A stretch of 64,000 nucleotides of DNA from Prorocentrum cordatum (lineage: Eukaryota). The position numbers and the translations under genes are program-made. The notes beneath the pieces were generated by a model that was not told where the DNA came from, did no database searches, and saw only the letters and a program-made list of their open reading frames with translations. Below, piece by piece: positions 28,006-52,037 of the stretch. Positions within the stretch are counted from its first letter, which is position 1, and each line of letters opens with the position of its first letter. The stretch is from assembly GCA_963575745.1 (NCBI GenBank), contig CAUYUJ010000146.1, positions 1-64,000 of the forward strand, written 5' to 3'.

Positions 28006-28857
28006 TCGTTCTGGGTGCTCTTCTGCCACGGGAGCTCCCGATACGATTGGAGACGATAAAATGTGATAGCGGGATGGGGGATTGGAGGGGGAGGGAGAAG
28101 AAAACGATGAAGGAGAGGAGGCAACGACAGCACCGATGAAAGCACCGTTTCTTTTTCGTTCTCCGCTCGGGCAGCGGTCGCCGAGCACGACGGCGCGCGC
28201 GAGTCGCCGCCGCTCACGATGCATTGGCAAGGCCTCCGCTGCTGCGGAGGGTCGACGTTCGGCCGATGAGGCCTCCCTCCGCTGCTGCGGAGGGGCGGCT
28301 CCTGTGCGATGGTTCAACTAAGCTTTTCCCAGGGATTGGTTTCGGGGGGGGGTTCGACCCACCTCCAAGTCGTGGTCGCGACCTCCCAGTGCCCCTGGCC
28401 GCTACTCCACCCACTGTGGCTGCTCCACCAGTCACTGGGGCGTTGGTCGCTGCCGAATGCAACTTGCATGTCGCGCCAGGCGGAGTCGACCATGCGGTCC
28501 TGCAGCGAGGAAGCCTCGCCGCTCGGCTGTTGCCACTCGCGCTCCTCGCCCTCCTTGGTGCGCCACCACTCATCCCTGCGCCACTCCTCCGTCTGTTGGT
28601 TGCTGCCGTGGCGTTTGTGGCCTCCGCTGCTGCGGGGGCTCTGGCGGCTCGTGGCCGAGGGCAGCGATCGCGTCCGAGATGTAGCTGGCGGCGCCGCGCT
28701 GCCCTCGCTGCTCCAGCGGCGCAGGCCCTGGAGATGGGCACTGCGGGGTCGGCTGCCACCTTGGGGGTGATAAATAATTATTTCTATATCCCCTCCCTGT
28801 CAACTCCCGCCCCTTCCCGACACTCATTTCCTTATGTCATCCCTCGTCCTGCTCAGC

Positions 28858-30927
28858 CTATTCCTCATTCCCTCTCCTCCCTCCTGCCCTCCCCGTGCTC
28901 CACCGCCCCTCTCCCCCCCTCCCCCTTTCAACCCCCCGCCGCGACCTTCCATCGCCAGCCGCGGGCATGTCGCGGCCGTCGTCCGCGCTTTCGTCTGCCC
29001 ATCTTGGTGGGCGCCACGCCTGTTGGGCGCGCTCGTCTTGCTCGCCCCTCTCGCTGTGCTGCTCTGGTGCCTGGCGCTCGGGTCCGTGCTGCTCGGGCGG
29101 CAGCGGCGCCCTGAGCGCAGCTGCCAGCCGTTTCTGGGCGCGCCTGTCCTTCTTCTCTTTGGCTCTCTCCTGCTTCCTCCCCTGCGAACGCACGCTGGCC
29201 ATGCGCATTTGGAACAGGAGAGGGTAGTGGGCGCCGCCGTGCCAGCGCCCCTCCACCTCCACGGTCTCTGGCGGGAACGTCTTCTGCAACGCGCGGAAGA
29301 GGGTCACCTCGCGATTACTAGAGAAGCGGTGGCCCCCTCTAGCCTCAGCCTCGGCGCGCCTCAGTTTCTCACCCTCCTTCTCTTGGATCTTGCGTTGGCA
29401 TTCCTCTGACTGAGTCAGTAAATCCTGAAGGTGCTCGCGGGCGTCTTTTTTCGGGTAGTAGCAAGAGTAAGGCATCCCAGGGCCTCCGTTCTGGCTGTGG
29501 TGCCAGTACGTCGGCTGCGATGATGGGCTGGTGGAGGCCCCCGCTGCTGCGGGGGCCTCTGCCTTGCTTCTGTTACGGTACCCGATCTCACCGATCACCG
29601 ACTTGCGTGCGAAGAGCAACCCCGTCTCGTCTCTGTCGTGCACGGCGCTCAGCGGCCAGCACAGGGTGTACTCGCCAGGCCTGTTGAGAACGAAGATGCC
29701 GCAGCTGTCCAAGCACGGAGTGCCGTCCAATCCGCGCCAGAAGTACGCTGCTGCCGTCTCCAATCGCATGCCTAGACCCCGAAGACTCGGCAGCGCCTGT
29801 GTGAGCGCCATGTTGAAATCCCCACAAAGGATGTCAACGCTGTTGTCCTGCAAGATGGTCGCCAACCTCGGCCACCACGTCTTGTGAGCCTCGTTGAAGC
29901 CTCTGGATTTTTTCGCCGTGTCGCGGTGGAGGTGCACCGCGCACTCCCGCACTTTCGAACCGAAGTGGGCGTAGGTTTGATCGAAGTAGATCTCAACCAC
30001 CATGATCCTCGAGAACGCTTCCATCTTGCGCCCTTTTGCTGTTCTGTAGTGGCCGTCGACACTCCTTTCCCAGCGGAGCAGCCGCATTTCGTAACACAGA
30101 TTTGCGCGCGCAGCGATGCACAAGGACTTGTCCTCACGCCCGCGCAGGGTCAAGTATTCGTACTCTGGTCGATTCTGGAGCTGTTGGCAATCGCCAACAC
30201 TCGCAGCACGACTTCCTCTTGCTGTCGCCATCGCTGCTGCGGGGGCGACAAAAGGCCCACCGCTGCTGCTGCTTTGGCCCTCCGCTGCTGACGCCCCCGC
30301 TGCTGCGGGGGCGTCCGCCTGCAGCGGCGGTGGTCTCCCTGGCCGCTGTAGGATTGACTCCATCTGCTCCTCACATTCCGCAAAGCACGCCACGAGAGCA
30401 GGGCAATGCCGCAGCTGCAACTCAAGTCTCCGCCGCTGGTCCGCGTGGTTGGTCTCGCTCGGCATGGGGCCCCAGTTCCCGAACAGGACGGAAAGGTTGC
30501 CCACGTTGTCGTTCCGTGGCCTGTTCACGTCAGCCGCTCTTCTTTCGCAGAAGAATTTTGGCGGGACGGTGTCGCGAAGAACGCATTCGCGCCGCTCGAC
30601 GTCGTTGGGCGGCCTGCAGCCCCTAAATTCCTGAGGCTCTTCGTCATCGCTCGGATCCACCACGGAGTCGCCTGGGCGGGTGCGTATCGTAGAAACTTCT
30701 GATCGCGCCGCCGCTGCTGAGCTTGAGACGCCGGGCGGCGCAGCCCCCGCTGCTTCGGGGGCGCCCTCTGGCACAAGGGCCCAAGGACCCTTCCAGGGTT
30801 CTGCCTGACCACCTACAGGTCGCCAAACCTTCCCAGATTTCGCTGCGAACACTGCCGTCAGTCGGCCCCGAGGCCCCGCTGCTGCGGGGCCCAATGGGCT
30901 GCTGCTGCTGCTGGTGGCCGCGGCCAT
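28858..30927 (-). CDS. EEP (endonuclease/exonuclease/phosphatase, APE-like) domain protein, cargo
   Basis: 689 aa with EEP-like motifs in order: LFGNWG, FAECE, AVHLH, ILCGDFNMA, LDSCGIF, GAHYPL. Confidence 0.75.
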   Translation of the reverse strand: MAAATSSSSSPLGPAAAGPRGRLTAVFAAKSGKVWRPVGGQAEPWKGPWALVPEGAPEAAGAAPPGVSSSAAAARSEVSTIRTRPGDSVVDPSDDEEPQEFRGCRPPNDVERRECVLRDTVPPKFFCERRAADVNRPRNDNVGNLSVLFGNWGPMPSETNHADQRRRLELQLRHCPALVACFAECEEQMESILQRPGRPPPLQADAPAAAGASAAEGQSSSSGGPFVAPAAAMATARGSRAASVGDCQQLQNRPEYEYLTLRGREDKSLCIAARANLCYEMRLLRWERSVDGHYRTAKGRKMEAFSRIMVVEIYFDQTYAHFGSKVRECAVHLHRDTAKKSRGFNEAHKTWWPRLATILQDNSVDILCGDFNMALTQALPSLRGLGMRLETAAAYFWRGLDGTPCLDSCGIFVLNRPGEYTLCWPLSAVHDRDETGLLFARKSVIGEIGYRNRSKAEAPAAAGASTSPSSQPTYWHHSQNGGPGMPYSCYYPKKDAREHLQDLLTQSEECQRKIQEKEGEKLRRAEAEARGGHRFSSNREVTLFRALQKTFPPETVEVEGRWHGGAHYPLLFQMRMASVRSQGRKQERAKEKKDRRAQKRLAAALRAPLPPEQHGPERQAPEQHSERGEQDERAQQAWRPPRWADESADDGRDMPAAGDGRSRRGVERGRGGEGRWSTGRAGGRRGNEE

Positions 30928-31059
30928 CGCTCCCTGCCCCCGCGTTGCAGGGGGGGGCGGCCGTCAGAGCCGAACTCCTGGGGCCGAAACGGCGGTGGAA
31001 GGAGGGGGGCGGGGCGAAGAGGAGGAAGACGGGGCGGATAGGGAAGGAAAGGGCGGGCA

Positions 31060-31300
<241 letters not shown>

Positions 31301-31637
31301 GAATGATATAATGACCAGGAGAGATCAGGGAGAAGGAGGGGGGAGAGCAGGAGGAGGGGCGGAGTGATCGACACCCGCGTGGTTTTCTCCCCCTGCCTGC
31401 TCTCCCCCTCCTCTCACCTCCTCCCCCGTCCCCCCTCCTCCCTGTTTCTTCTGCGCAAGGCCTGCGCTACGTCCGCGCGCGCACGCGGCACCTCAGTCGC
31501 AGGCAGGTGGAAGAGCAGTGGCTGCTGCCCGAACTCACACCCCGCGCCTCGCCGCTGCTGCGGCGGGCCGCGCCTCTCAGAGGCCCCCAGCTGCAGGGAG
31601 CGCAAGCGCCAGGGAGCCAGACAGACGGCGTCGCGTC

Positions 31638-34616
31638 TCACTGTGCACAAACATGCTGAAAGCTCTCGGGTTGCCCCCCCAAGTACTCGTCAATGACGTT
31701 CTGCAACCATGTGGCAAACGTCTCCGGCCACTTTCCACCGAAGTCCTCCATGCCAGCGGCGTCCCACTCCCGCCGAAACCAGTCAAAATCTGACCGCTGA
31801 GCTGCAGAAAGCCCAGAACCCAAAATCGCAAGGCGATTCAGCGCGTCGTACCTCGACGTTCGACCCGCCACGCCTCCGCAGCTGCGAAGGCCCGCGCCCA
31901 GCTCGGATAACCCGACATGCTTCATCCTGTGTTTGATATCTATGGCTGCCTCTGCGTCTAAGAGTTTGGCTTGCTGTGTCCTCAGCAGCTTGCGCGCTTT
32001 CTTTACGTCGTCCCCCAGGCGGGTTAGCTCTTCTCTGCGCCGCGCCTCGACATCCCGCTGTCGTTTCTCGTTTCTGAGCGTCGCCTCGCGGGCGTCCTCG
32101 TATGCTGCGAGGGCTCGCTGAACCCCAGGATCTTCCTTCGACACTTCACGCACTCGCCTCCGTTCTTTCCGTAATTGCGTCTCCATGAACGTGGCCCCCG
32201 CGATGTCGCCCCAGCTGCGCAACTCCTCAGCGATCGACGAATGCGTTCTCATCAATTCAGACGTCTGCTCCGCAGTTTCCATACGAGACGTCGACAGGCC
32301 AGGCGGTGCCTCCAGCGCGCTCTCCCCCGCCGCTGCTGCGGTGAGACTTTGATTGGCCCATTCGTAGTCAAACTCGCCAGCGGCGCTCCACCCGTCGTCG
32401 TCCTCGCTCCCATCATCTTCATCTCCTTCGAGGGCGTCGACGGAATTGCCACCCTCAGTGCCCCCGCTGCTGCGGAGACCCTCGGCTGCGTCTTCCGCCC
32501 CCTCCATGCCATGCCAAATCTTGTCGCCCTCGTCCAGAGCCGTGTCGTCTCCAAGGTTTGCGAACACGTCGTCGCAGTGGCCGCGTCGAGGGCGCGGGAG
32601 GACCAATCGCATGATGTCTTTGTAAGTCCATCTCAAGCGCCCCGCCTGTACCTCTTCTTCGACCTCCGCTACTGCGGCGGCGACCTTCTCACGCATCCCC
32701 AACTTTCTCCAGAAATGGCCTGCCTCCTTGCACATGCGCGCGTCCAAGTCCGCATCCCGCAGATTTGCCTTGAAACCAGTTTCCCAGTACCAGTCTGCCG
32801 CAGCCAAGTGAAGACTCATTTGGAACATCACTTCCACCATCAAGTCAATGCATTCTAACTTGTCCAGCTGTGGGACGCACTGGCCCAGCCTCATGGCTCT
32901 CAGCAGCGCGGCTCCTTCTCTCTTCATGTACTCGCGCTTGGCGTGTTGATTCAGATGTGTGTCCACAGTTTGGAGGATTGGGGTCACGCCGCCCCCGTGC
33001 GGGATGAACACGTACCCTCGAGACCAACACAGCTTACTCACAAGCGGGGACAAGTGAGGGCCATGATCATCCGCCATCATAATTCTCCACTCCCGCTGCT
33101 GCGGAGGCTCTGGCAGATGAGGGAGGTGGCGGTCCAGGTACGCGAGCACGCACGGTGTCCGGTAAGACCCCTTGGTGCTGGTGGTCGCCGACACCCATCT
33201 GCCGAACCCTCGGCGCCGAAGGTGTTCGAGCAGGCGCGGCCTCAACTTCTCTCCTCCCCCCTCCGCCTTGAACATGCACTCCATCGGTGGGGGGCCTTCT
33301 CTCCGCAGTCGATCCTTGTCGCTCATTGTCATGAAATTGGCCGTCCACCGCTCCCGCACCGCGCCGTGGCACTCCACCAGTGGCACTTCGACCCCCGCTA
33401 CTGCGAGGGTCCTCACGCCAGCTGATCCTGTTTCATTGTGGTGGAAAGGCGACTGGTCGAAGTTCTCCATCTCGGGATCCTGCTCGTTGAGTAGCACGCA
33501 CGCGGCGCGCGCCCTAAACACGTTCAGCCAGCCTCGCTCGAGGCGCTCTTCCAAGACGGGCAGCGGGCACTTGTACTTCCTGTTCGGGTACCGCATGCTG
33601 AGGCCGTATTCCTTGCGCCAGGAGGCCCACCAGCGCGACCTCAACTCCACGGCGGCGGGTCGCTGCCCGATCCGCAGCTGCTGCGTGACGTACTCGCTCA
33701 TGAGCTCCAACGCTTTGGTCTGGAGCATGCTTTGCGTGAACCTTGCTATCTTCGCTGGCTCTCTTTGGGTACTTCGCAGTCCACTTTTGATCATCTTCCA
33801 ATCCACACTGTGCCGAATGGAACTCCACCATTCAAACAGAGCTTGCCGCAGCCAAGGGCATTTTCGAGCTGGGCCCTGTCCCTGTTGTGGTATCCTTTTC
33901 CGCCCTTTCCACTTCAGGAGGCGCCCCTGCCCGTGCTGCTTCTCGTGTCCCCGCGGCTGCCGAACAGCCTCCGCTACTGCGGAGGCGTATTTCGACGACA
34001 GAAAAGCCTTGTGCCAGCGCCGCACAACGTGCGTGCGCTTCCTGAGAGGGAGACGGGACATGGAACCCCAGTCCCACGCATCCATGAATGAACGCGCCCC
34101 TCCATACGGAAAGCGGTCTCCAGGCGTCCAGCCTAAAGAGCGCATGTGCTCGTCGAAAGCACCCGCTATCTCCATCCTCGAGCACAGGAGCGACGGGACC
34201 ACCACGCGCTTCTTGTTCTGGGCGGGGGCTTTGCGCTCGCAGCCGCGGTTCCTGTACCTCAAGAGCTGCTCCTCCCGCTCTGCGGGCATCAACTCCCGAG
34301 CTACGTCCAGGGCGCACGCAGCGTCTGTCAGTCCTGTCCACCATTGGATGGCTTGCACGAGCTCCTGACAGACAGCCTCGGCGTCGACTTCCACCACTGC
34401 CAAGTCCTCAGGTGGCGCCGCCGCTGCTGCGGCGGCAACGCCCTGTGCTCTCGGAGGGGCGGCGTGGCCAGGCTGCGGGACAAGTTCTTCGTCGTCTAAG
34501 GCGCTCTGCAGGCGACGAAGCTCCTGGACGTCATCCTGCGTGACTTCTTGTGTCAGGACCATCGCGTCGAGGAACCGCGCCAGACGCACCCTTTGCACGA
34601 TGTAGTCCGCGATGTC
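31638..34616 (-). CDS. pogo-like DDE transposase (CENP-B-type HTH plus DD35D catalytic domain); probable exon 2
   Basis: Open 997-aa ORF. HTH-like LRQALFEWW...LQTKALEL...SRWWASWRKEYGLSMR. Catalytic motifs NFDQSP, MMADDHGPH and GVTPILQTVDTHLN, with 35 residues between the second and third Asp as in pogo/Fot1. Confidence 0.9.
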   Translation of the reverse strand, partial: DIADYIVQRVRLARFLDAMVLTQEVTQDDVQELRRLQSALDDEELVPQPGHAAPPRAQGVAAAAAAAPPEDLAVVEVDAEAVCQELVQAIQWWTGLTDAACALDVARELMPAEREEQLLRYRNRGCERKAPAQNKKRVVVPSLLCSRMEIAGAFDEHMRSLGWTPGDRFPYGGARSFMDAWDWGSMSRLPLRKRTHVVRRWHKAFLSSKYASAVAEAVRQPRGHEKQHGQGRLLKWKGRKRIPQQGQGPARKCPWLRQALFEWWSSIRHSVDWKMIKSGLRSTQREPAKIARFTQSMLQTKALELMSEYVTQQLRIGQRPAAVELRSRWWASWRKEYGLSMRYPNRKYKCPLPVLEERLERGWLNVFRARAACVLLNEQDPEMENFDQSPFHHNETGSAGVRTLAVAGVEVPLVECHGAVRERWTANFMTMSDKDRLRREGPPPMECMFKAEGGGEKLRPRLLEHLRRRGFGRWVSATTSTKGSYRTPCVLAYLDRHLPHLPEPPQQREWRIMMADDHGPHLSPLVSKLCWSRGYVFIPHGGGVTPILQTVDTHLNQHAKREYMKREGAALLRAMRLGQCVPQLDKLECIDLMVEVMFQMSLHLAAADWYWETGFKANLRDADLDARMCKEAGHFWRKLGMREKVAAAVAEVEEEVQAGRLRWTYKDIMRLVLPRPRRGHCDDVFANLGDDTALDEGDKIWHGMEGAEDAAEGLRSSGGTEGGNSVDALEGDEDDGSEDDDGWSAAGEFDYEWANQSLTAAAAGESALEAPPGLSTSRMETAEQTSELMRTHSSIAEELRSWGDIAGATFMETQLRKERRRVREVSKEDPGVQRALAAYEDAREATLRNEKRQRDVEARRREELTRLGDDVKKARKLLRTQQAKLLDAEAAIDIKHRMKHVGLSELGAGLRSCGGVAGRTSRYDALNRLAILGSGLSAAQRSDFDWFRREWDAAGMEDFGGKWPETFATWLQNVIDEYLGGQPESFQHVCAQ

Positions 34617-34790
34617 CTGGCGGGCGGGCATGGAGGAGGGGCAAGGAGACTCGGTGGTGAGGGCACGAGGGGGGAGAAGGGCGGGATGGGAGAGGCATGA
34701 AGGAAAAATGGGGAGACAAGGAGGGGAAGAGCATGTGGGGGCAGCAGAGATGGAAGCGAAGGATCAGGGTGGTCGGAGAGAGCAACTGTC
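34617..34790 (-). other. Putative 174-nt phase-0 intron, GA...AG
   Basis: Minus strand reads CAG|GACAG...CAG|GACATC; the interior is pyrimidine-rich; removal yields in-frame ELRQ-DIADYI. Confidence 0.7.
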
Positions 34791-36251
34791 CTGGCGGAGC
34801 TCCCTGCGAGACTCTCGCGTGGAAACCTCCTGGGTCATCTGCAGCATGCAATCCAAACCGCAATCCCCGTCTGCGACTGTGGACGCGACGAACGCACCGA
34901 GAGCCGAATAGAAACCGTCCACCGTCGAAGCATCTCCCGTGAAATCCACAAAGTCGGTGGAGACGCCTGCGATAAAATGATTGCATAGAAACAAAGGATA
35001 CTCCTCCGACACGGGGGCCCAGTCCGGTGGCCCCGATTCTCGGGGGGCGGCGCAACGCGCGATCGCGTCCACCGCAGGCTCGCGGGTTAACTCCTCTAGT
35101 TTCCACGGCGGCAAGACAGCTTTGCAAAGGTCGACTCTGTTGCGTCCTTCCCACGCGTAGACGCGCACCTTCCGCAGAAGCGCAAAGATTACGAAAGCAG
35201 AATACCCTATCCACTCTCGGCCTCCCCCCGGCCTTCCGCGAATACTGCGCGACAACTTCATCAATTTCTCGAAGCACCTCTGGCCTTGTTCTGAAAGTGC
35301 CCCTGCAGGCGCCCCCGCTGCTGCGGGGGCGCCTGCAGGGGCAACCGCAGCGCCTGCTGTCGCGGCTGTCTGTTCACAGGCGGTCACTGCAGCAACTTCC
35401 GCCCCTGGAAGCACGGGTTCCGCTATGTCGCGAACAGCAAGCGGGGCGGGTTGGGGGAAAGCGACAGGGGCAACCTCCTTTGCTGAGAGAGCTGCTGTTG
35501 CCGCGGAGTCCTTCAAGGCAGACTCCACTGCGGAAGCGGCCTCGGCGATTGCGTCGGCGCCATGCGCGCCAGCAGGACCTACGGACGCCTCCGCTGTGGC
35601 GGGCTCTGCAGAAGGGCACGCGCACGGCGCCGCCGCCACTTCAGGAGGAGGCGCGCACGCTTCCGCTGACGCACCCGCTGCTGCGGGGCCGTCAGAAGAG
35701 CCCACATACGGCTCCGCTGCCACTTCAGCAGGGGCCACGCACGCCTCCGCTGACGGCCCCGCTGCTGCGGGGCCTTCAGCAGGGCCCACCGACGGCTCCG
35801 CTGCCGCTTCAGCAGGGGCCTCGCACGCCTCGGCCGGCGCCTCCGCTGCTGCGGGGGCTCCCGCTCCTGCGGGCCACCCGCCCGCGCATTGCACTAAATG
35901 CCAGGGCGCTTGCAAGTCTGACCACTTATTGTAGTCCACGGAACCGTCCGCCAGACGATGGTCGCTGGGACACGGCCACTGCGAGCAGAAATGAATCTTC
36001 TTACATATGCGTCTGCCAGAGTCATAATGGCAAGCCGCGCCGCTGCTGCGGCGCATAACGTACCCGAATCCGAATATTGTCCCCTTTAGTTTCCGTGGGT
36101 TCATGAGCACTCTGTCGGGGTCTTTCTTTTTGTCTTCTTGGTACCAAAACTCCACAAATTCGTTGGCCTCGCGGTCGTGCCCGACTCGCAGAGGCGCGTT
36201 TGCAGGGCGAGCGTCTCCTGGGTCTGGAGGCGGAGCGGCTGCGGCTGCCAT
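34791..36251 (-). CDS. OTU-like cysteine protease-containing exon (probable exon 1 of the transposase gene)
   Basis: Part of ORF 34764..37076, likely starting at MAAAAAPPPD (36251). Contains EWIGYSAF..., CNHFIAG and TVADGDCGLDCM...RELRQ, which continues as DIADYI in the transposase ORF. Confidence 0.7.
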
Positions 36252-37129
36252 GATGCCGAAGCCATGCGCGCGCACGCGCGGCCGCCCTCTGGTCTCGAGC
36301 CCAGCGCTGCAGGGCAAGCAAACGGCCGCATCCCCCCACAAGGAGGATGTACAAGGGGGCGGGAGGAACGAGGAACAAGGGAGATATGCGGGGACCAGCG
36401 GACACACGCCTGAAAAAACACGACCGTCGGCATGCTTCGCGAGGGTTGCTGCTGTGAGATGGGCTGGTGAGGAGGGGCCCGAACGACTCGCACCAGGACG
36501 AGCGGCCCGAACGACGCGCAGAAAACTCAGAAGCATGCACACACGAACGAACGCCCCGAACGACTCCGAGAACACTCCCCAGAAAGCAAGGCCAGAATGT
36601 AGGAAGTCGTCGACGTCGTCGTCGAGGGAAGGCGAACGCGGCACGGGGGATGATGATAGTCTCCTCTTCCACCGTGAAGCAAGAGCCCCCCCAAAAAAAG
36701 CGGGCCGCTCGGGCGTTTGTATTAGACGCCAAAAGTGCAACATTCCTGCAGGCCGCCTCTGCAGGAATTGAGGCGCAGCCCCTCCCGCAGCCGCGCTGCG
36801 GATGCGCCAGCGGGCGCGGGGGAGCGGCGGCGGCGCCAGCGCGCAGCTGGTAGCTGTCCCCTCCTCCCCCCCCATCATGGCGATGATGAGAATGATGAGC
36901 ATCCTACGATGATGAGGCCCTATGTCCTGTCCCAGAGTCTCGGGCCCCGCCCTGGGCCGCGGGCCACGCCCCTGCGACCGTGTTATATATACATACATAT
37001 ATATATATATAAATACACACATATACGTATGTACATACATATACGTCGACACACCATACATACACAATATATACATATATGCATCATGTAATCAGTCAGC
37101 GGAGGCCCGACGCCGCCCAAGACGACCGC

Positions 37130-37815
37130 ACGGAGCGAGAGGCAGAGCGTGCCTCGAGACAATATTTTCTGTTTCTCAGGGGTTTTCTCTGGTTGGCGAC
37201 GCGCCGCCACCTGCTTCGCTTTCGATGCGCCCTTCACGGTTCCGAGGAGATCCGCCATGGGATCCCGACCTTTTTCTCCCGCTGCTGCGGGAGATCCTGC
37301 TGCAACCCCCGCTGCTGCGGAAGCGTTTTTCACAGGAGTCGACGCTTCATCCACGTTGTCTCCTTCTCCGACGCGAAGCTTCCCAAGCACTTGCTCTAAC
37401 ATTGTCGTTTCGTTCAAGGCGCCCTTCACGGCACTGAGACCACGGACCACCTTGAGCATGCACAGGCGGTGCTTTCCGACGGGCACGAAGGCTTCTAGGC
37501 TTTCCTCGCCGCCAAAGGGAACATAGCGCTCCTCAAATTCCAGAGCAAATCCCGATGCTCCCTCGTGACTTCGGCACAGTCCGCCCGTCGCGCAGAGCAC
37601 CCCCATGCTCGCGTCATCTTGGCGCGCTGCTTTCCCGATAACGACATCCCGCCATGTTTCCGATGCCTTGCGTTTCATGCCGCCGCGCGCAAGCCCTCGC
37701 TGCTGCGAAGGCGCCCGCGTTCTAGGTGTCAACTCCCCTCACTGGTGGCCCGCCTGAAAACGGCTATGGGAAGCGGACTCCTCGTCTCGAACAAATCCTC
37801 CTACTTCTCATCGGA
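37130..37815 (-). pseudogene. Truncated duplicate of the 5' part of the 318-aa gene
   Basis: Highly similar to about 39020-39670 (MKRKASETWRDV vs MKRKAEDTWREV); breaks off before the AT microsatellite. Confidence 0.75.
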
Positions 37816-37849: not shown

Positions 37850-38215
37850 CCACGGCCACTGCGAGCATAAATGAATATTCTTCCATGTGCGTTTGCCATA
37901 TTCATAATGGCAAGCCGCGCCGCTGCTGCGGCGCATAACGCAATTACCCGAATCCGAATATTGGTCTCTGTAGTTTCCGCGGATTCATGAGCACTCTGTC
38001 GGGGTCTTTAGTTTTGTCTTGTTGCTATAAAAAACTCCACATTCGTTGACCTCGCGGTCGTGCCCGACCCGCAGAGGCGCGTTTGCAGGGCGGGCGTCGC
38101 CTGGGTCTGGGGGCGGAGCGGCTGCGGCGGCCATGATGCCGAAGCCATGCGCGCGCGCACGCGGCCGCCCTCCTGTCTCGAGCCCAGCGCCGCAGGGCAA
38201 GCAAACGGCCGCATC
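37850..38215 (-). pseudogene. Frameshifted duplicate of the start of the OTU/transposase exon 1
   Basis: Similar to 35970-36335 (MAAAAAPPPDPGDARPANAPLRVGHDRE). Confidence 0.75.
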
Positions 38216-43157: not shown

Positions 43158-43372
43158 CTATCCAGGCGCCCCCGCTGCTGCGGGGGCAGCTTCCCAAACA
43201 GATGCTCCGCGACGGTTGCCCCCGCTGCTGCGGGGCCCCGCTTGAAGCACGAGTGCCTGTCGCGCGCGCGGACAGAAGGAGGGGCCTCACGGATCCGCGG
43301 CCTGCCCGCACTTGAGCAAAAGGAGAAGGAGAGGAAAGGCAGATAGAGGGAGAGAGACAGAGAGAGAGAGAC

Positions 43373-43431
<59 letters not shown>

Positions 43432-44945
43432 GAACGGCGGGCCGACGCGGCCTTCTCAGTTTTTCGATACGAGCACATCCGCCTGAACAGGAGAAGCATT
43501 GATACATCGGCCCCCCCCCTGTGTGAGAGAAAGGTTGCCCGCCCCGGACCCATCTGTGAGAGAAAGGGGCGCTGTGAGAGTTGCGTGTATGGAAGCGATG
43601 ATCACTACAAAGACATAATGACGGGCGGGGGGTTGCAGGAGGGAGTGCAAGGGGAAGCGAAGCAAAGGAGAGAGCAGGACACAGGTGACAGCACAGATGT
43701 CGTGTTTTCCCCCACACCGCATGCGATGCCGCACGCGGCGCGCGAAACCGCGCTCCCCCGCGCGCGCGCGAGTGCGCCCCTCCGCCGAGGTCACTCTCCT
43801 CGGCGAAATTCTCGCGACATCCCTCCGCTGCTGCGGAGGGGCGTTCCCCTTGTGCGCTCGGGATGTCGTGGTCATCCTGAGGACCGTACAATCAACCATG
43901 TGGGGGCACTGTCGTGTTCATCCGCCCCGTAATTACATGCGAAGGGGGTCGGCGCCTTCTTGCCAGGAGCTGCCGACTGGCGGCATCTTGGACCCTAGTT
44001 TGTACCAGTTGCCCCAATGGTCGCGGTACCAAAGTGCCTGATCGAATGGATCGTCATCCTCCACACCTGTCCTCCGAGCAGTCTTCTCATCCCACAACCC
44101 ACCACGCTCCAAGACAGCAGCCCCCGCTGCTGCGAGGGCTACAGCAGCCCCCGCTACTGCGAGGGTTTCTTTCTTGGAGCTCGCCTTGCGCCGAGCTAGC
44201 GGCCGCGCGGCCGCCTTCGCCGACGCTGCCGTGGGTCGAGCCGCAGCCCCAGCGCGCTTGCTCGAATGAGGTCTGTGATCGGGTTTCCGAAAAGCCCTCT
44301 TCTCGCCGACGCGGCATCGTCCCGTCCTTGTGTCGGGTTTCCTATTCCTCTTCTCGCCGATGCGGCATCGCCCGATCCTTGCGTCAGGCTTCCTAACCTT
44401 CATGGCTGGCGATCTCGAACCCAAACGGCACGGCAGAGATCGGGAGCGGGACAAAGAACTGACACATGGAGCGGGACCGGGACCGGGAGCCCGGGACCGG
44501 GACCAGCACCGACACCGGGACCGGGGCCGGGTCCAACACCCCCGCGTTCCCGGTCCCGGTCCCGGTCCCGGTCCCGGCCCCGGTCCCGGTCCCGGCCCCG
44601 TGGTCGGTTCTGCTGCTCGTCCAGGGCTCCCCGTCCCTGTCCCGCTCCCGGTCCCGGTCCCGCTCTCCCCTTGGTCCCGGTCCCGGTCCCGGTGTCGGTC
44701 CTGGTCCCTGCAGGACCCCTCCTCCTCCTCCTCCTCTTGCTCGCCCTCCTTTCCCCCCCAGCAAAAAGCAGACGACGACGACGAGCACGACGACAACGAC
44801 CACGATTTCTTCAGCCGCTCAATGCGAGCGCCTGCCTCCTCGCGCGCGCGCGCGCGCCGAGCCCGCGCCTCAGATCTCTTATGATAACCCCCGCTGCTGC
44901 GGAGACCACCCCCGCTGCTGCGGAGGTCTCCGCAGCCGCGCGCCG

Positions 44946-47628
44946 TCAGCTGGAGTCGCTTGAAGGGCTGCGGCGCCGCGACAATGCCTCGAACGCGTCA
45001 CTGTTGAACGCAAACGTGTCCGCAGGAAGCGGCGACTCCCTGGAGAGGAGCTGCGGCGGGGGAGGCTGCGGCGGCGGCCTCGGGACGAGCGGCGCTGCCA
45101 GAGGGCGGGGCGTCTGCGACTCTCTTGGCAGGAGCCGCTTCGGCGGAGGGTGCGGCGGCTGGCTCGGGACGAGCCGCGGTGGCGTAGGGTGCGGTGTCTC
45201 CTCCAGCGGGGGGGCCCCGCGGCGTCCTCCTCCACGCGGGGGAGATGGCGGTGGTGGTGGCATCATTGGCGGCATGCCTGGCGGACGGCATATCTGGCCT
45301 GGGAGGAGCGGGCGCCATGCCCTCGGCCTCAGCATCGCCTGACCTGTGTGGGGTGGGTGCGCGGGCGGCGTGGGCAGGAACCGCCCTGCCCACGCCGCCC
45401 TGCGGTCGCCGCCCTCCACCTGCCCACTGCGTCTGGAGCGGCTGCGCCCCCTCTGCTCCTGCCCTCTGCGTCTGGAGCGGCTGCGCTCCCGCTGCTGCGA
45501 GGGCACTCTCCTCATTCGGTCTTTGCTCCTCTGCTCCCGCTTTCTGCGTGTGGAACGGCTGCCCCCCCGCTGCTGCGAGGGCTTCGCCCTCTTTGGGGTT
45601 CTGCTCCTGATATCTTTCTTCTTGTTTTTCTTCTTCTTCTTCTTCTTGTTTTTCTTCATCTTCTCCTTCTCCTTCTTCTCCTCCCTCTCACCTCTGTCAG
45701 GGTTGCTCTGTTCGTCCTGGGGCGGCGTGGGGCTGCAGAGGCCGACGGCGTCGCGCCCGTCGCCCTCAAGCTCCTCCTGGGCTCCGTGCGCCCCCGCTGC
45801 TGCGGAGGCTGCTGCTTCAGATTCTGTCTCCGCCTCCTCCTGGTCTCCGTGCGCCTCCGCTGCTGCTGAGGCTGTTGCTTCGGGTTCTGTCTCCGCCCAC
45901 TCTCCCCGCTGTTTTTCCCACTTGGCTTCCCGCTTCCGATCCTTCTTCCTGGCCGCGGCGCCTTTGCCAGACTTCCTGTTCTTGGCTTCTATAAAAAACG
46001 AACAATGTGTGGCAATGTTCCGTGAGGCGGTTCGCATCCTGGGCCTTGTGGATCACCCTGTGCAAGTGCGGCCAGTCATATGTATCCTGCTCCTTGCGCT
46101 CCGCGTCCGTGAGCCTGACCCAGGTCGGACGCGCCACCCAATCCAACTGGCGGTACTGCAGGCTGGTGAGGAGCCTCCGCTGCTGCGGAGGCTGGGAAAC
46201 CTGATTCAACCAGTGCGGCAGATCAGGCTGCCCGCCCGCAGGGCACTCGCGAACCTGAGCGGGGCCAAGAATCACGATGTAGTGCGGGTGCGTCACGTGA
46301 TAACCTTTTGTCGGACACCACAAAGCCAAGCCGAGTACGCCTGTACCAGACGCGCCGCAACTTCTGAGCAGCTCCGAAAGATCCTCCCTGTCTGCGTCAA
46401 AGATCCCAGCGAGAATACGCACTCGGTGCCACAACGCCAGGTTCCGCAGCCCGTTGCGGAAGTTTTCGGGCCACGGGTGCCCCGCGAGGCTCGTCTGGTG
46501 TCGGAAGAACACGCCCCCCACTGCTATGGAGAGTTTGCCTTCCTTTGCTTTCGGATTGTGAGCCACCGCTGCCAGGGTCACCGACCAGGCCTGAACCAGG
46601 AACTTCCCGTGGCAGTGCCAGCGAAGCACCTCGCACTGCTCGACGCGCTCGGGAACCCAGAGGAGAGCCCCGACGCACTCGCGCGCGACCTCCCCGTGGA
46701 AGCCACTTTGGCGGATGAGATCGTCGAGATGTTGCTTCCGCCGATCGCGATTGATGCGTGCACCAGGCTCGAAGGAGACTAAGACGACCCCTTCGCGCCT
46801 GTCCCTGACAGCTGCGACCCAATCCGACAGGGAGGCGCCCGCGCGCAGGACGAGGGAAGCAAAAGCCAGATTCACGCGCGCCTCTGTCTGCCCCTCCTGC
46901 ACCTGGTCTTCGTCGTCGTACAGCAGGGGCACAAGAGGCTTGGAATGGCTCGGGCCGCGCTCTTCCGATGGGAAGTGCGGGCGGCCTTCCTCTGGGAAGC
47001 CCTCTTGGACAGGAAGCGCTGGCGACCGAGCCTTCGAGGTCAAGGCGAGAGTCTTGATCACGCGGGCCCCCGCTGCTGCGGAGGAGCTTTCACGCAGTTT
47101 GCGTGCTGCGATCAGAGCCTGCCGTTGTCGCCAATTAGTCGTGCAGGGAGATCTCGGTCTCGGGTCATCGGAGCCACCCTGTCCAGGCTCGATTACCACT
47201 GTGGCGGCGCCTGGCTCCACGGATGCCCCCGCTGCTGCGGAAGCCGCCTCCTTAGCCGTTATGACTACAAGGCGGTTGGCGGCGGCCGTTAACTTCCGCG
47301 CCTCTTCGATCCGGCCATTCTCCATCATTTCCTGAGCAACCAGCAGGCTCTGCGAAACGCTTTCCTGGGCACCAGACATCAACGAAAACAATGACCGAAG
47401 TTTCGTTGCAACCTCCCCCCCCGCTGCTGCGGAGGCCGGTGCTGGATCTGCCATTCCATGCGGAACTGCATCAGGGGCCTCCTCTGGCAGCCCCCGCTGC
47501 TGCGGAGACTTCGGCAGAGGTTCCTGCGCGGCTCCAGTCGCGCCAGGCTGCTCCATGCCCTGGGCCGCCCCCGTCGCGGAGGCGGGCGGGCGCGGCGGGG
47601 GGCGGACCTGCAACGGCTGCGGATTCAC
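44946..47628 (-). CDS. Divergent second EEP-like paralogue with basic/Pro-rich tail; one frameshift at A-run 45993-45998
   Basis: RILAGIFDAD aligns with ILCGDFNMA, and EHCHTLFVFIEAKNRKS with GAHYPLLFQMRMASVRS. The second copy (63693-63697) is in frame at this site. Confidence 0.55.
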
Positions 47629-50359
47629 TTTATCGCAATGCCATCCCTCCCTGCGCTCAAATGACTTTTCCCCTTGCGCCAGTCTGCTGCTCCCACTTCT
47701 GAACTACCTCATCCCTTCTACCTCTGCCTGCTCCCTCCTCCTCCTGTTCAGTCCTCCCTCCTCCCTCCACCGCGCTCATTTCTCCTTGCTCCCTTCTCTG
47801 CTCCTCCTACGTGGGGCGTTTCACGACAGCGACGACGACGACGACGCCGACGAGAACGATGACCGCGACGGCGACAACGAGGGCAACGACGACCACGACG
47901 ACGACGACGAGGACGATGACCACGACGGCTACCAGCGACGACGACTAGCGACGACGACGATCGACGACGACGACGCCGACCACGACGACGACGGCGAGGA
48001 CGACAACGAGCGACGACGACGACGACAATCGACGCCGACGAGGAACGACGACGACGAACGAGGACGACGATTACGACGACGAGATGACGAAGGATCGAAG
48101 ATCGAACCTCGAAGTGCGAAGCTTCGAAATTCAAACTTCGATCTTCGAACTCCGAACTTCCAGCTTCTAACTGCGAACGTCGCTGGGGTGCCAGGGATGG
48201 ACTGGGATGGAGGGAAAATGGGAAGGAAAAGCGAGGAAGCGGGAGAGGAAGTTGGAGGAGAACGAACAGGCGTGGAGCGACGAGGAACGGGCGGCGAGGA
48301 GCCGACGTTGAGGGCGGCGGGATGGGGGGACAGGGAGGAGAGGGGAGACTTCAAAACGAAAATCGCGCCACGGCGCCTGCACGCGCGCCCCCGATCTCGG
48401 CGGCCGACGCGCGCGCCCCTGCAGAAATGCAACGCGCCCTTCATTCGAGCCCCGCTGCTGCGGAGCCACCTACTCCACAACCAAATCGTCTGGGGAGCTG
48501 TTCGGACCCCAAACTACTAGTTCTTCAGCCACTCGGCTCTTGCGAGTCCGCCCTCATGACAAGGGCAACCTTCACATGGGGACACTCAATGGGGTGTTGA
48601 TTGAGAACGCCCCATGTGGCTGGTGGCAGGAACGGACGAGGGGGGGCGGATAGAGGAGCAGGACGAGCACTGGCAGGGGATATGCACCAGGAGAGAGATC
48701 TCATGGAGGAAGAGGAGGGGAGGGGACGAGAGCCACTCATAATTAAGCGCACGCAGGCCCACGCACGTGCTCCATTTCTCAGCGACCGCCGCGCCGCCAT
48801 GAGAACTGTCGTACCACCGCCGCTACTGCGGCGGATGCGTGACCTCTCCCATCCCTGTCCTGCGCTGTTTCTGCTACCGCCCTCCCCCCTTCCAGCCAAG
48901 CTCGGGTTTCATGCTCGGAGACGGGCGCGGCTGGCGGCTCTTAGTGCGGGTGCGCGTGCTGCCTCCAACTCCTCATCCCCCTCCTCCTCCTCTCCTCATC
49001 CCCCCTCCTCTTCCTCCTCATCCTCCTCTATCGGCCCAGCTCCGATCGCCGCTCAGCTCTCCTGGTGCGGCTGGCGGCAAAAGTACCGAAAATTGCCTGG
49101 GGTGTCCTTCGCCGTCTTCTTCGACATCTCAAGCATCATCTTGCCCTTCTCCTCGGTACGGCGCGCCTCCTCCATCATCTGCCGCGCCTGGTCGACGAGC
49201 ATCTGGCCCTTCACTCCAACGGCGCGTGCATGGCGGCAACGATTGCGGCAACGATTGCGCCGTGGTCGCCCAGTGCCAAACGCTGCCCTCCGTCGCGATG
49301 AGCTCGAAGTCATCGACGTCGCACTTGCCCGCGATGCTCGCCATAGCGGCGCAAAAACCGCGAAGGGGCCTCCTCTGGCAGTCCCCGCTGCTGCGGAGAC
49401 TTCGGCAGAGGCTCCTGCGCGGTTCCGTCGCGGAGGCGGGCGGGCGCGGCGGGAGGCAGACCTGCAACGGCTGCGGCTTCACTTTATCGCATTTCCATCC
49501 CTCCCTGCACTCACATGGCTTTTCCCATTGCGCCAGTCTGCTGCTCCCACTTCTGAACTACCTCATCCCTTCTACCTCCATCTGCACCCTCCTCTTCCTG
49601 TTCAATCCTCCCTCCTCCCTCCACCGTGCTCATTTCTCCTTACTCCCTTCTCTGCTCCTCCTACGTGGGGCGTTTCACGACAACGACGACGACGATGACC
49701 ACGACGGCGACAACGAGGGCGACGACGACCACGACGACGACGACGAGGACGATGACCACGACGGCGACCAGCGACGACGACTAGCGACGACGACGACCGA
49801 CGACGACGACGCCGACCACGACGACGACGGCGACGACGACAACGAGCGACGACGACAACGACAATCGACGCCGACGAGGAACGACGACGACGAACGAGGA
49901 CGACGATTACGACGACGAGATGACGAAGGTTCGAAGATCGAACCTCGAAGTGCGAAGCTTCGAAATTCAAACTGCGACCTTCGAACTCCGAACTTCAAAC
50001 TTCGAACTGCGAACTTCGCTGGGGTGCCAGGGATGCAATGGGATGGAGGGAAAAATCGGAAGGAGAGAACGAGGAAGCGGGAGAGGAAATTGGAGGAGAA
50101 CGAACAGGCGTGGAGCGACGAGGAACGGGCGGCGAGGAGCCGACGTTGAGGGCGGCGGGGTGGGGGGACAGGGAGGAGAGGGAAGACTTCTTAACGAAGA
50201 TCGCGCCACGGCGCCTGCACGCGCGCTCCCGATCTCGGCGGCCGACGCGCGCGCCCCTGCAGAAATGCAACGCGCCCTTCATTCGAGCCCCGCTGCTGCT
50301 GCGGAGCCATCTACTCCGCAACCAAATCGTCTGGTGAGTTATTCGGTCCCAAAACTACT
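47476..50359. repeat. Internal ~1-kb direct duplication (47476-48516 vs 49366-50359) including (GAC)n tracts
   Basis: Colinear high similarity visible by eye. Confidence 0.85.
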
Positions 50360-51500
50360 GTTTGCCACCCGCTGCTGCGGACGCCGAGGGCCTGGTGCTG
50401 GACGCCGCGGCCCCGCTGCTGCGGGGCCCCTGAGAGGGCGTCGGCCCCCCCTTCTCTCTGGCGGCGTCGAACTTGACCTTGCGCTCCACACCGAGGTCCT
50501 TGTGCCAGCGAAAAGTTCCTGACCCGTCGCTCCCGCCCAAACCCGCGGTTGGTGGCCTCACCGTGTCCGCGTGGGGGGCGAGGGGCAGAGCTTCGACCTT
50601 CCTGTCGCCCCAGTGCGGGTGTAAACGGACGCCTGTCCCGTCGTCGCGGTGCAACACGAAATCCCACATCGGCAGCTTCACTTTCACCCGCTGCCCCGCG
50701 AACTGTCGCGCGCGCACAATACTCTGACGCATGTGGTCGTAGCTGTTTGGCCGGACTTCGAGGGAACAGCCGATCAGAGCCCCGCTGCTGCGGGGCCCCT
50801 CCACGACCTCCCTGATATCTTCCCCCCTGGGCGTCGCCACCATCTCTTGCCACCGCCAAGGGACTTCCTCGTCGCTTTTGAAACCAAAGCTCGTCCTCGC
50901 ACCGTGGTCGCAAACAGCGACCATGGTGGGCTCCGCATTGTCAAACCACTTGGCTTCTCACTCGAACGGGGCAGTTGGGTCTTCATTCAGATGGCGCCAC
51001 CATTTCAACGCTTGATTGTGTTGCTGAAACGCCGTGCCGGGCCTCTCTTCATAACTCAAAACATAATTAACATCAAACTTCTCAAAATCCTGGGGCCCGC
51101 GCGCCGCCGCCGCTGCGGTGGCGCGGGGCTCCTGCGCCGCAGGCGCGGCTCGGGATCCCGACCCCTCTCCTGAAACTGTGTTCCCAGGTTCTGGTACGTT
51201 TCGGAGGGCAGCCCTCACGAAATTATCGAATTCGGGCATGCCGAGACCAGGGGCGCGGGGGCTCACAACGCCAAGCGCGGCGAAGCGAGACGGCCGTTGA
51301 GGCGAGACCGCCGCCGCTGCTGCGGCGGCAGGGCCATCGCGCCATTTGGCGTCCTCCGTTGGCGTGTGCCCGTCTTGTCGCCAGTCTCTCCAACCCCTCG
51401 CTGACCAATCATGGCCGTCCTCCCAGCCACGCCAGCCGCTGCTGCGGCTATCCCACCATCCTCCCGCGCCATCCCATGTGTATCCGCCTGCATCGCCCAT
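50355..51500 (-). pseudogene. Hypothetical cargo gene with one in-frame TGA (50958-50960)
   Basis: MGDAGGYTW...HNQALKWWR...PFE*EAKWF...WRWQEMVA...WDFVLHRDDGTGVRLHP; both listed ORFs share one frame. Confidence 0.6.
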
Positions 51501-52035: not shown

Positions 52036-52037
52036 TC

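Follow-up and report, generated by a model that had tools for sequence, protein, structure and literature searches.

A strand-polar hairpin repeated along a large transposon

What does a short hairpin do when it recurs dozens of times on one strand of a transposon, within genes as well as between them, and what might read it? The question is raised by a 64-kb window of repeat-rich eukaryotic DNA (the whole stretch analysed here, from Prorocentrum cordatum contig CAUYUJ010000146.1), which contains a transposon of 24,186 bp, bounded by terminal inverted repeats (TIRs) at 27880–52065 with TA on each side, and part of a second copy of it. Judging from sequence, we favour, with a probability of roughly 0.45, an RNA hairpin in the sense transcripts, repeated along the element, whose apex would be read by a lineage-specific protein.

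The exact 12-mer CCGCTGCTGCGG occurs 52 times in the window, and all 52 copies lie on the plus strand (mean of 0.02 in dinucleotide-preserving shuffles). Forty-five are in 28236–51447 and seven in 60131–63504, with none in 1–28235 or 51448–60130. Allowing up to one mismatch gave 75 matches, again all on the plus strand (1.34 expected): 61 in the first copy, 11 in the second and three in the left flank, the last lying within a CTG run at 15281–15313. A first inspection of the letters (the sequence-only reading) had counted about 60 hairpins in the element, scarce in the flanks and back in the second copy, and these numbers bear it out. It had also placed a TGCT loop always on the plus strand; the copies do share one strand, but the true hairpin is CCGC-AGCA-GCGG on the minus strand, the sense strand of the genes, and TGCT is its antisense image.

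The hairpins also served to train a covariance model, which we applied unfiltered to all of the window (E ≤ 0.05) and which recovers its training sites by construction. It returned 62 matches, all on the minus strand: 54 in copy 1, eight in copy 2 and none in the 35.7 kb outside element copies that served as flank control, so that the motif is element-specific within the window. Twelve variants came from outside the training set, and matches on the plus strand were lower-scoring mirror images of the same sites. Even the generic pattern CCGC-N4-GCGG occurs once in the 27,879 nt of left flank and never in the 7,779 nt between copies, against a hairpin density in the element of about 2 per kb. 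Spacing is at most mildly regular (coefficient of variation 0.75 versus 0.97 at random, with about 3% of simulations as low), and neither the close pairs (≤65 nt; 7 versus 5.2 expected) nor the hairpin-free terminal 356 and 618 nt (about 1.9 expected) are significant. Among variant places in contigs from public sequencing runs, none of the 40 shown of 302 falls in a hairpin 12-mer (0.85 expected, not significant), and cmscan at Rfam gathering thresholds matched none of 4227 families anywhere in the window.

The hairpin cores are listed below. Each is an exact 12-mer match, with further evidence in brackets; the reading frames are those of minus-strand open reading frames (ORFs).

28236–28247, minus, left end region, outside confident ORFs (covariance model)
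28279–28290, minus, outside confident ORFs (covariance model)
28624–28635, minus, downstream of the 689-aa ORF stop (covariance model)
29541–29552, minus, 689-aa ORF, AAA frame
30297–30308, minus, 689-aa ORF, AAA frame
30876–30887, minus, 689-aa ORF, AAA frame
31552–31563, minus, about 75 nt past the transposase stop codon
32330–32341, minus, transposase, AAA frame; homologs retain AAAG inside a variable region (alignment)
32464–32475, minus, transposase, RSSG frame
33093–33104, minus, transposase, PQQR frame; PQQR retained in 45%-identity homologs (alignment)
34421–34432, minus, transposase, AAA frame; site common to 27 of 37 aligned relatives (alignment)
35315–35326, minus, mid-point of a perfect palindrome some 40 nt long; gap in relatives L001, L002 and L017 (alignment)
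35675–35686, minus, 84-nt tandem unit, transposase N-terminal region
35759–35770, minus, 84-nt tandem unit, transposase N-terminal region
35843–35854, minus, 84-nt tandem unit, transposase N-terminal region
36040–36051, minus, transposase N-terminal part, RSSG frame (conserved MRRSSGA; alignment)
37279–37290, minus, intergenic, in a duplicated fragment of the 318-aa gene region (self-comparison)
37309–37320, minus, intergenic, 30 nt from the 37279 site (self-comparison)
37920–37931, minus, intergenic, duplicate of the 36040 site (self-comparison)
38539–38550, minus, 29 nt past the 318-aa ORF stop codon
39137–39148, minus, 318-aa ORF, AAA frame
39167–39178, minus, 318-aa ORF, AAA frame
40647–40658, minus, 1033-aa ORF near the end of its conserved part, PQQR frame
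41123–41134, minus, 1033-aa ORF, AAA frame
41186–41197, minus, 1033-aa ORF, AAA frame
41978–41989, minus, 1033-aa ORF, AAA frame
42416–42427, minus, 1033-aa ORF, AAA frame
43172–43183, minus, just upstream of the 1033-aa ORF start
43222–43233, minus, 50 nt from the 43172 site
43825–43836, minus, 97 nt past the stop of ORF 43933–44796
44891–44902, minus, second of a tandem pair past the stop of ORF 44946–46037
44912–44923, minus, first of that tandem pair, 22 nt past the stop of ORF 44946–46037
45794–45805, minus, 11 nt past the 579-aa ORF stop codon
46177–46188, minus, 579-aa ORF, PQQR frame
47070–47081, minus, 579-aa ORF, AAA frame
47229–47240, minus, 579-aa ORF, AAA frame
47421–47432, minus, 579-aa ORF, AAA frame
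47494–47505, minus, 579-aa ORF, PQQR frame
48452–48463, minus, no confident ORF
49385–49396, minus, paralogue of the 47494 site in a tandem duplication (self-comparison)
50369–50380, minus, no confident ORF
50413–50424, minus, no confident ORF
50782–50793, minus, no confident ORF
51314–51325, minus, no confident ORF
51436–51447, minus, core closest to the right end, 618 nt inside
60131–60142, minus, copy 2, equals 42416 (self-comparison)
60887–60898, minus, copy 2, equals 43172 (self-comparison)
60937–60948, minus, copy 2, equals 43222 (self-comparison)
61540–61551, minus, copy 2, equals 43825 (self-comparison)
62590–62601, minus, copy 2, equals 44891 (self-comparison)
62611–62622, minus, copy 2, equals 44912 (self-comparison)
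63493–63504, minus, copy 2, equals 45794 (self-comparison)

Variant hairpins follow, with covariance-model E values; all except those marked "model only" were also found by the one-mismatch scan.

30740–30765, minus, variant (model only, E 0.011)
32659–32684, minus, variant with sense loop AGUA (E 0.039)
33964–33989, minus, variant with sense loop AGUA (E 0.022)
37690–37715, minus, variant (model only, E 0.0085)
39548–39573, minus, variant, sense UCGC...GCGG with closing U.G (E 0.029)
44117–44142, minus, variant with closing U.G; copy-2 twin at 61832–61857 (E 0.011)
45560–45585, minus, variant with closing U.G; copy-2 twin at 63259–63284 (E 0.024)
48813–48838, minus, variant with sense loop AGUA (E 0.036)
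50283–50311, minus, variant whose loop region is longer by one CTG/CAG unit (E 0.03)
51100–51125, minus, variant (E 0.049)

Relatives carry clade-specific versions of the loop

Relatives were gathered as 80 loci (349 kb) from metagenome contigs via transposase alignment, each oriented with the transposase on the plus strand. In the three closest (72–79% protein identity), the sense 12-mer CCGCAGCAGCGG is present in nine, eight and five copies and its antisense in none. Across the 80 loci CCGC-NNNN-GCGG occurs 695 times, with loops AGTC (333), AGTT (165), AGTG (45), AGTA (36), AGCA (22) and GGTN (36), and each reverse-complement loop has zero to two copies. Counted over the 80 loci and the window element together (373 kb), the family pattern stands at 697 sense versus 15 antisense copies. 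One clade (L056, L058, L059 and L064) has an altered apex, C-A-GC-UGUN-GC-G, in which the bulged A is invariant and which sits on a lower stem of 4–6 bp whose sequence varies from copy to copy; sense copies number 35, 9, 29 and 9 in these four loci and antisense copies 0, 0, 1 and 0.

Loop types sort by clade when mapped onto the transposase tree. A large AGTC clade has the bulged-A clade nested inside it, another clade has a free fourth loop base, and derived lineages are fixed on AGTT, GGTA or AGCA. Aligned by codon, 43 transposase genes contain 308 hairpins, which group into 67 positional clusters; the three largest have a hairpin in 27 of 37, 26 of 41 and 24 of 43 sequences. The same alignment column can host different loop types, some columns lie in otherwise variable protein segments, and conserved positions span relatives of 35–45% protein identity. 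Since loop type follows clade while positions are shared, many conserved sites have switched apex in concert, which is what one expects if a trans-acting reader shifted its specificity. The motif thus behaves like the cis code that had been proposed for it, because relatives carry clade-specific versions.

Searches further afield gave no counterpart. Viral contigs scanned with a 14-mer yielded at least 119 loci with one match each, on either strand, which is chance level, and no clustered relatives. A literature search with the exact 12-mers returned primers and probes only, and no counterpart of a dispersed hairpin device was found in the literature searched, which excluded most subscription journals.

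Paired positions covary and the gene-sense strand is the one kept

We next asked whether the stems are maintained as stems. Pairing in the 62 distinct bulged-A hairpins amounts to 93.3% of cells versus 69.4% in column shuffles (reached by 0 of 500), 115 cells are changed on both sides versus 39.6 in shuffles, and each of the four variable pairs shows all four Watson-Crick types; partner columns slid out of register pair at 25–64%. The 59 distinct AGCA hairpins, read in the sense direction, are 95.3% paired versus 82.3% in shuffles (0 of 500), with slid controls at 41–64%. Stems extend to about 8 bp in the AGCA type, 7 bp plus the bulge in the bulged-A type and 4 bp in the AGTC type. The check for stem covariation that the sequence-only reading had proposed therefore came out in its favour, and together with the use of three reading frames and of non-coding DNA, described below, the covarying stems indicate that the constraint acts on nucleic acid, as that reading held.

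The four variable pairs of the AGCA type, in the sense reading, contain 41 G.U and 8 A.C cells, and at the fifth position U.G is the most common pair (18 of 59). Because the opposite strand would swap the two counts, the hairpin of the minus, gene-sense strand is the one that is kept. Stems are also longer where no protein is encoded: hairpins outside coding-like ORFs have 1.76 extra pairs versus 0.91 inside (p = 9 × 10−9, with the trend in each loop class), and 28% versus 11% have at least three.

These observations bear on two readings in which DNA is what is recognised. If the 12-mer were a duplex site, with CCGC and GCGG as inverted half-sites around an asymmetric centre bound by a dimeric factor, its orientation would come from descent and from the co-oriented genes. 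The half-sites are indeed CpG-containing inverted repeats, and in the AGTC clade the 12-mer alone is invariant, its flanks pairing at chance (75 of 293). Such a site gives no reason for a polarity of 697 to 15 and leaves unexplained the freely covarying lower stem with its invariant bulged A, the preference for G.U over A.C and the longer stems outside ORFs, and we consider it quite improbable.

The main rival, which was also the leading idea of the sequence-only reading and which we regard as rather unlikely, keeps the fold and moves it to DNA: the sense (non-template) strand would form a single-stranded DNA (ssDNA) hairpin, extruded in transcription, replication or transposition, that would load an element protein (a nuclease or a DNA-binding factor, for instance) directionally or mark the place for it. 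That the copies keep strictly to one strand across 24 kb and throughout the family suits such a site, covarying stems suit DNA hairpins equally, and with DNA energy parameters the sense strand folds better at 46 of the 59 AGCA-type sites. Hairpin density is similar in intergenic DNA and lineage-specific cargo, and the element carries conserved proteins without assigned function. The conserved U.G at one stem position and the 41 to 8 excess are, on the other hand, more typical of RNA, and we know of no process that exposes one strand along a whole integrated cut-and-paste mariner-type element.

Neighbouring hairpins can also pair with each other into an imperfect duplex of 14–20 bp (44880–44935 in the window; 6030–6075 in L036), in which G.U pairs join AGUU loops and two mismatches remain between AGCA loops. 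The same mutual complementarity holds for any two copies on one strand.

Hairpins occupy three reading frames and are retained

Twenty-four of the 45 window hairpins of copy 1 lie in confident minus-strand ORFs and 21 outside. By frame, the 24 encode AAA(G) in 18 cases, PQQR in four and RSSG in two; the sequence-only reading had seen hairpins inside ORFs in all frames, and three frames are in use, but unevenly and with nearly half of the copies beyond confident ORFs. In the family, 511 of 655 copies lie in long sense reading frames, divided 337/136/38, and 144 outside, at similar densities (1.92 per kb in ORFs versus 1.72 outside). The bias favours the least disruptive reading, Ala-Ala-Ala or Ala-Val-Ala.

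Selection on protein, or a codon preference that favours runs of alanine, glutamine or serine in a single frame, would account for the predominance of one frame (18 of 24 and 337 of 511 in-ORF copies), and the element is rich in Ala-rich low-complexity protein segments. It fails on the three frames, the 21 window and 144 family copies outside ORFs, the covarying stems and the clade-specific loops, and the flanks, which are just as GC-rich and include CTG and GGA repeats, lack any exact 12-mer over 35.7 kb; we hold this explanation, which the sequence-only reading had itself named as its refutation, to be highly improbable.

Comparison with L001, a relative of 80% DNA identity, speaks to retention. 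Seven of 12 aligned window sites are still exact, where the neutral expectation is 0.8^12 = 7%, and this degree of sequence retention indicates purifying selection. Unshared sites differ mostly by one or two substitutions without a gap (six of eight distinct cases are ungapped 1–2 nt variants).

Could the hairpins nevertheless be a functionless by-product, either a palindromic unit that spreads by insertion, duplication or gene conversion, or the outcome of biased mutation or repair on the transcribed strand? Some copies are plainly duplicated, among them those of the 84-nt units (35675, 35759 and 35843) and of duplicated segments, the 35315 site is an indel relative to three relatives, and copies past stop codons are often within short tandem repeats. 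Against this origin stand the ungapped point changes just described, the retention beyond neutral expectation, the specific residues that hairpins dictate in conserved proteins, and positions kept across relatives of 35–45% protein identity while the loop switched in concert. We judge it improbable. The three tandem 84-nt units at 35675–35854 each contain one hairpin, encoding GPAAAG, so hairpins also multiply through tandem duplication of coding sequence.

Hairpins peak just past stop codons

Position relative to genes is far from uniform. In the 50 nt past 86 stop codons we found 55 hairpin centres, or 12.9 per kb, compared with about 1–2 per kb inside genes and 0.3–1.4 per kb further downstream. 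Of 43 transposase genes, 25 have a hairpin that begins within 100 nt past the stop, as do 23 of 40 other ORFs, and these hairpins are often tandem pairs or triplets; in the window, hairpins stand 11, 22, 29, 75 and 97 nt past five stops. There is a small rise in density 50–100 nt upstream of start codons and a lower density in mid-intergenic DNA. In each of the eight longest loci (6.8–13.6 kb), as in the window element, every coding-like ORF is oriented as the hairpins are.

The post-stop peak and mid-intergenic dip track transcript units rather than the whole element, a pattern that tells against the ssDNA hairpin. Among the functions that the sequence-only reading had listed (protein loading, coating or packaging, modification or self-marking, an RNA hairpin), the RNA hairpin fits best, given its place on the sense strand of every credible gene, the excess of G.U over A.C and this peak, although the loop as first written was the antisense one. 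A polar DNA loading site remains its main rival given the co-oriented genes.

A lineage-specific apex and its putative reader

Under the favoured RNA reading, the element's own predicted sense transcripts would carry the hairpin many times, placed wherever the protein tolerates Ala-Ala-Ala, Pro-Gln-Gln-Arg or Arg-Ser-Ser-Gly, as well as in untranslated stretches. A reader protein would recognise the apex, that is, the closing C-G pair with an (A/G/U)G(U/C)N tetraloop, and each lineage would have an apex of its own: AGUC, AGUU, AGUN, GGUN, AGCA or the bulged-A UGUN. We infer that hairpins and reader changed together, because the apex is lineage-specific at sites that are often position-conserved, and this suggests that the reader is encoded by the element. 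Its likely uses would be to define or protect the 3' ends of gene transcripts and to mark long transcripts as the element's own.

A more specific proposal, which strikes us as rather unlikely, is a private barcode for each lineage, in which the apex would be written at least 50 times into transcripts or sense DNA and read by a co-evolving, element-encoded protein. Evolution would then proceed by discrete switches, from AGUY to AGCA, GGUN or the bulged-A UGUN. The barcode would confer cis-preference, restricting the element's proteins to its own RNA or DNA and shutting out relatives, non-autonomous parasites and host surveillance, while the same apex code would also set gene 3' ends. Such a eukaryotic transposon would possess a recognition code of its own at the nucleic-acid level, superimposed on the protein code.

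Several observations weigh against the RNA reading. The G.U excess is weak in the bulged-A clade (19 versus 9, pairs 1–5), and the gain in folding energy on the sense strand is small for AGCA hairpins (−1.15 kcal/mol, p = 0.018) and not significant for bulged-A ones; G.T is, moreover, the least harmful mismatch in ssDNA, and a sense-strand DNA hairpin fits nearly as well. The AGTC clade, the largest, keeps the 4-bp core only, and its 12-mer could be a plain sequence signal since pairing in its flanks is at chance level. With all genes pointing the same way, transcription direction is confounded with element polarity, and the counts of stops and sites are not independent events because the loci are partly homologous. 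No RNA-binding domain was recognised in any element protein with Pfam or PDB profiles. The reader may instead be host-encoded, and the relatives are known from metagenome contigs alone.

Should the RNA reading hold, widespread and very large DNA transposons of marine and other aquatic protists would overlay a structural code on their protein code, with a hairpin so frequent that it dictates amino acids in conserved proteins, keeps its positions over the whole range in which those proteins can be recognised, and is re-tuned in each lineage. The family would then be a natural system in which to follow the evolution of overlapping RNA-structure and protein codes, the cis-preference and transcript identity of eukaryotic mobile elements, and the roles of four proteins that belong to no known family. 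In practical terms the hairpin is a simple and highly specific marker: its 12-mer with the strand rule locates and orients, in genomes and metagenomes, family members that are otherwise unannotatable.

Comparison with known hairpin systems

The hairpin resembles several known systems and also differs from each of them. Repetitive extragenic palindromic (REP) sequences and bacterial interspersed mosaic elements share the transcript of the gene before them; REPs lie, by definition, outside genes, and they are genome-wide, present in both orientations and tied to HUH transposases, the REP-associated tyrosine transposases (RAYTs). Like the present hairpins they are short, GC-rich, imperfect palindromes in many copies, single or tandem and often just past stop codons. 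Bacterial REPs are thought to protect 3' ends (PMC3733652). The hairpins described here differ in that about three quarters of family copies are inside ORFs, in one orientation and in one eukaryotic transposon family, and no Pfam match to a RAYT (HUH, IS200/IS605-like) transposase was found among 45 scanned proteins of the window and loci.

Packaging signals of single-stranded RNA viruses (MS2, satellite tobacco necrosis virus, parechovirus, the pregenomic RNA of hepatitis B virus) consist of dozens of shared-loop stem-loops on one strand, in coding sequence, each a weak site for one and the same protein. Here, too, many shared-loop hairpins run through coding sequence on one strand, and the bulged-A form recalls coat-protein operator hairpins. 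This is, however, an integrated DNA transposon, its hairpin apex is far more uniform, and Pfam recognised no capsid-like, polymerase or RNA-replicase family among its ORFs, although conserved proteins of the element matched no recognisable fold or family.

The AGNN tetraloops cut by Rnt1p, the yeast RNase III, offer a likeness in the loop. Sites of Rnt1p that follow genes help to form 3' ends and serve as fail-safe terminators, and the enzyme needs a stem of about 14–16 bp below the loop. AG-led loops make up 617 of the 695 family copies, with a free fourth base; the GGTN loops (36) and the UGUN clade are exceptions. Single hairpins here have 4–9 bp, a longer duplex arising through adjacent pairs only, the third loop base is limited to U or C, and no RNase III was identified in element proteins.

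The histone mRNA 3' stem-loop, bound by SLBP, and the 'hairpin rule' of Mimivirus are short 3' hairpins past the stop codon on the sense strand. They share with our hairpins a short stem, a 4-nt loop with a free last base and a distance of tens of nt past the stop. The window has no match to the Rfam Histone3 family (RF00032), most copies here are internal to ORFs, and Mimivirus hairpins share no sequence with those of the element.

Chi, the FtsK-orienting polar sequences (KOPS) and DNA uptake sequences are over-represented, oriented oligomers by which a directional or selective machine knows a replicon as 'self', uptake sequences lying in ORFs and as pairs after genes. The likeness is a short over-represented oligomer with a strand rule. 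Those oligomers act as duplex or translocated bacterial DNA without folding, whereas here covariation supports folding, in one eukaryotic element.

A mariner-like transposase in a multigene element

The ends and copies of the element are as follows.

27878–27879, unstranded, TA at the left end, putative target-site duplication (read from sequence in one copy; same as the TA at 52066–52067)
27880–27907, plus, left TIR, ATCCAGAAACCGCATTAAAGTGATCATT (inverted-repeat match)
27923–27971, plus, left subterminal 17-nt palindromes CCCTCTGTCACAGAGGG, two exact copies with a degenerate third directly after (repeat count)
39896–40105, unstranded, internal cluster in which the subterminal 17-nt palindrome occurs six times, two one way and four the other (repeat count)
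51954–52033, plus, right subterminal palindromes, three copies, centre oriented as at the left end (repeat count)
52038–52065, minus, right TIR (inverted-repeat match to the left end)
52066–52067, unstranded, TA at the right end (read from sequence)
59945–64000, minus, partial second copy, equal to 42230–46301, beginning after a 100-N gap and running off the window (self-comparison, 98.7% over 4074 nt)

The TIRs are 28 nt long with one mismatch; with the TA of each side included, 27878–27907 and 52067–52038 match at 96.7% over 30 nt. The centre of the subterminal palindromes reads GTCAC on the plus strand at both ends. Their orientation is thus direct, not inverted, which makes the element ends asymmetrical beyond the TIR. 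The internal cluster sits mid-element, between the 1033-aa and 318-aa genes, within an imperfect palindrome of about 370 nt (39780–40150) made of 40-nt units. It could be an internal regulatory or transposase-binding region, or else an inserted end-only derivative.

The criteria for a coding-like ORF were a purine-rich first codon position, a GC-poor second and a GC-rich third. All credible genes and long coding-like ORFs lie on the minus strand:

28858–30927, minus, 689-aa ORF with a GDFN motif, conserved family downstream of the transposase in relatives (nine loci; without Pfam or PDB sequence match)
31638–34631, minus, transposase C-terminal ORF, 997 aa, mariner-like DDD core (58 homologs; model; Foldseek)
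34618–34791, minus, 174-nt CT-rich in-frame segment splitting the transposase frame (flanked by the 10-nt direct repeat CGCCAGGACA)
34792–36191, minus, transposase N-terminal part, Cys/His-rich, with a DGDCGLDCM motif and 84-nt tandem units each with a hairpin (homologs)
38580–39536, minus, 318-aa ORF, conserved family just upstream of the transposase in relatives (six loci)
40056–43157, minus, 1033-aa ORF, conserved over about its first 850 aa (poor model)
45817–47556, minus, 579-aa coding-like ORF in the lineage-specific right part (composition; without relative among the 80 loci)

The 1033-aa family, the 318-aa family, the transposase and the 689-aa family form a conserved four-gene block that keeps this order in relatives. 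On the plus strand, a very acidic ORF at 47555–48520 has coding-like composition and, if real, would be the sole gene antisense to the hairpins.

We combine the 997-aa ORF and the coding part of the ORF upstream into one transposase gene because homologs span both. The 174-nt segment between them is a multiple of 3, contains a stop codon and has possible borders GA...AG then G; it is absent in homologs P0004 and P0005 and read through in P0002. Its origin would be that of a non-canonical intron or of a small insertion that duplicated its target. None of six listed contig joints from four public runs removes it, nor does any of the 12 joints with letters between that were shown out of 25 further ones.

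By its predicted fold the transposase is mariner-like. An AlphaFold model of the core (mean predicted local distance difference test score, pLDDT, 82.3; predicted template modelling score 0.71), searched against the PDB with Foldseek, had Mos1, SETMAR or Sleeping Beauty as its top 16 matches, with E from 6.7 × 10−5 to 5 × 10−3, probability 0.98–1.0 and modest TM-scores of 0.3–0.6 on the target. The DD..D-type motifs are DQSPFHHNE, ADDHG and QTVDTHLN. D392, D521, D522 and D557 are invariant in a 13-sequence alignment; in one of 42 sequences D153 is invariant and D282, D283 and D318 fall in the class conserved in at least 90%.

Other searches were unrewarding. Element proteins have no Pfam match at E ≤ 1 beyond noise, and across 45 proteins from the window and loci the sole Pfam match at the curated cut-off was a reverse transcriptase in the flank. 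A 13-sequence profile of the transposase had no PDB sequence match, and profile searches of PDB sequences with the 1033-aa and 689-aa proteins gave nothing meaningful. The 1033-aa model (pLDDT 51) matched nothing but generic helical bundles in a fold search (Z ≤ 8). Two guesses from motifs seen by eye, an EEP-like (endonuclease/exonuclease/phosphatase) nuclease prompted by the GDFN motif and a ParB-like N-terminus, were unconfirmed. ARAGORN found no tRNA gene in the window.

The mariner-like fold, TA flanks and short TIRs together place the element beside Tc1/mariner (Mos1, Sleeping Beauty, SETMAR), with which it shares the catalytic-core fold (best Foldseek E 6.7 × 10−5) and DD..D-type motifs. 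It differs in length (24 kb, where about 1.3–2.4 kb is usual), in gene number (at least four, conserved and co-oriented, where one is usual), in a long extra N-terminal part of the transposase and the lack of a sequence-level Pfam or PDB match. The element is mariner-like by fold and ends, not by size, gene content or sequence. To our knowledge no Tc1/mariner member has a dispersed hairpin code, and none was found in the literature searched either.

Further repeats and neighbouring sequence

Two arrays of 8–12 nt tandem repeats lie within the element, at 30981–31342 (between the transposase and the 689-aa ORF that follows it) and at 43283–43402. In its right, lineage-specific part, 47571–48522 and 49425–50362 form a tandem duplication of 92% identity.

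A 394-nt bin at 36128–36521 had a summed contig depth some 18–35 times that of its neighbours in all four public sequencing runs (in run X1, 14,704 versus about 400–550), and many loose contig ends lie at 36331, 36417, 36470–36473 and 36515. A short piece in this bin belongs to a far more abundant repeat. Some contigs from the public runs join distant parts of the element (32478/41183, 41196/33392, 35311) with few unrelated letters between, and three of eight joint ends are at or beside hairpins (32464–32475, 41186–41197 and 35315–35326). The joints may be rearranged copies broken at hairpins, or assembly effects.

Ahead of the second copy, the scaffold gap of 100 N occupies 59845–59944, and just before it is an inverted repeat at 59196–59604 with arms of 163 nt, 91% complementary and 83 nt apart. 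The window has many microsatellites. The left flank contains the Copia-type reverse transcriptase (Pfam) at 12289–13668 and, at 837–6708, a repeat of about 2.2 kb present three times in tandem (88–92% identity), hairpin-free and unrelated to the element, with internal sub-repeats of 140–160 nt and long CTA microsatellites.

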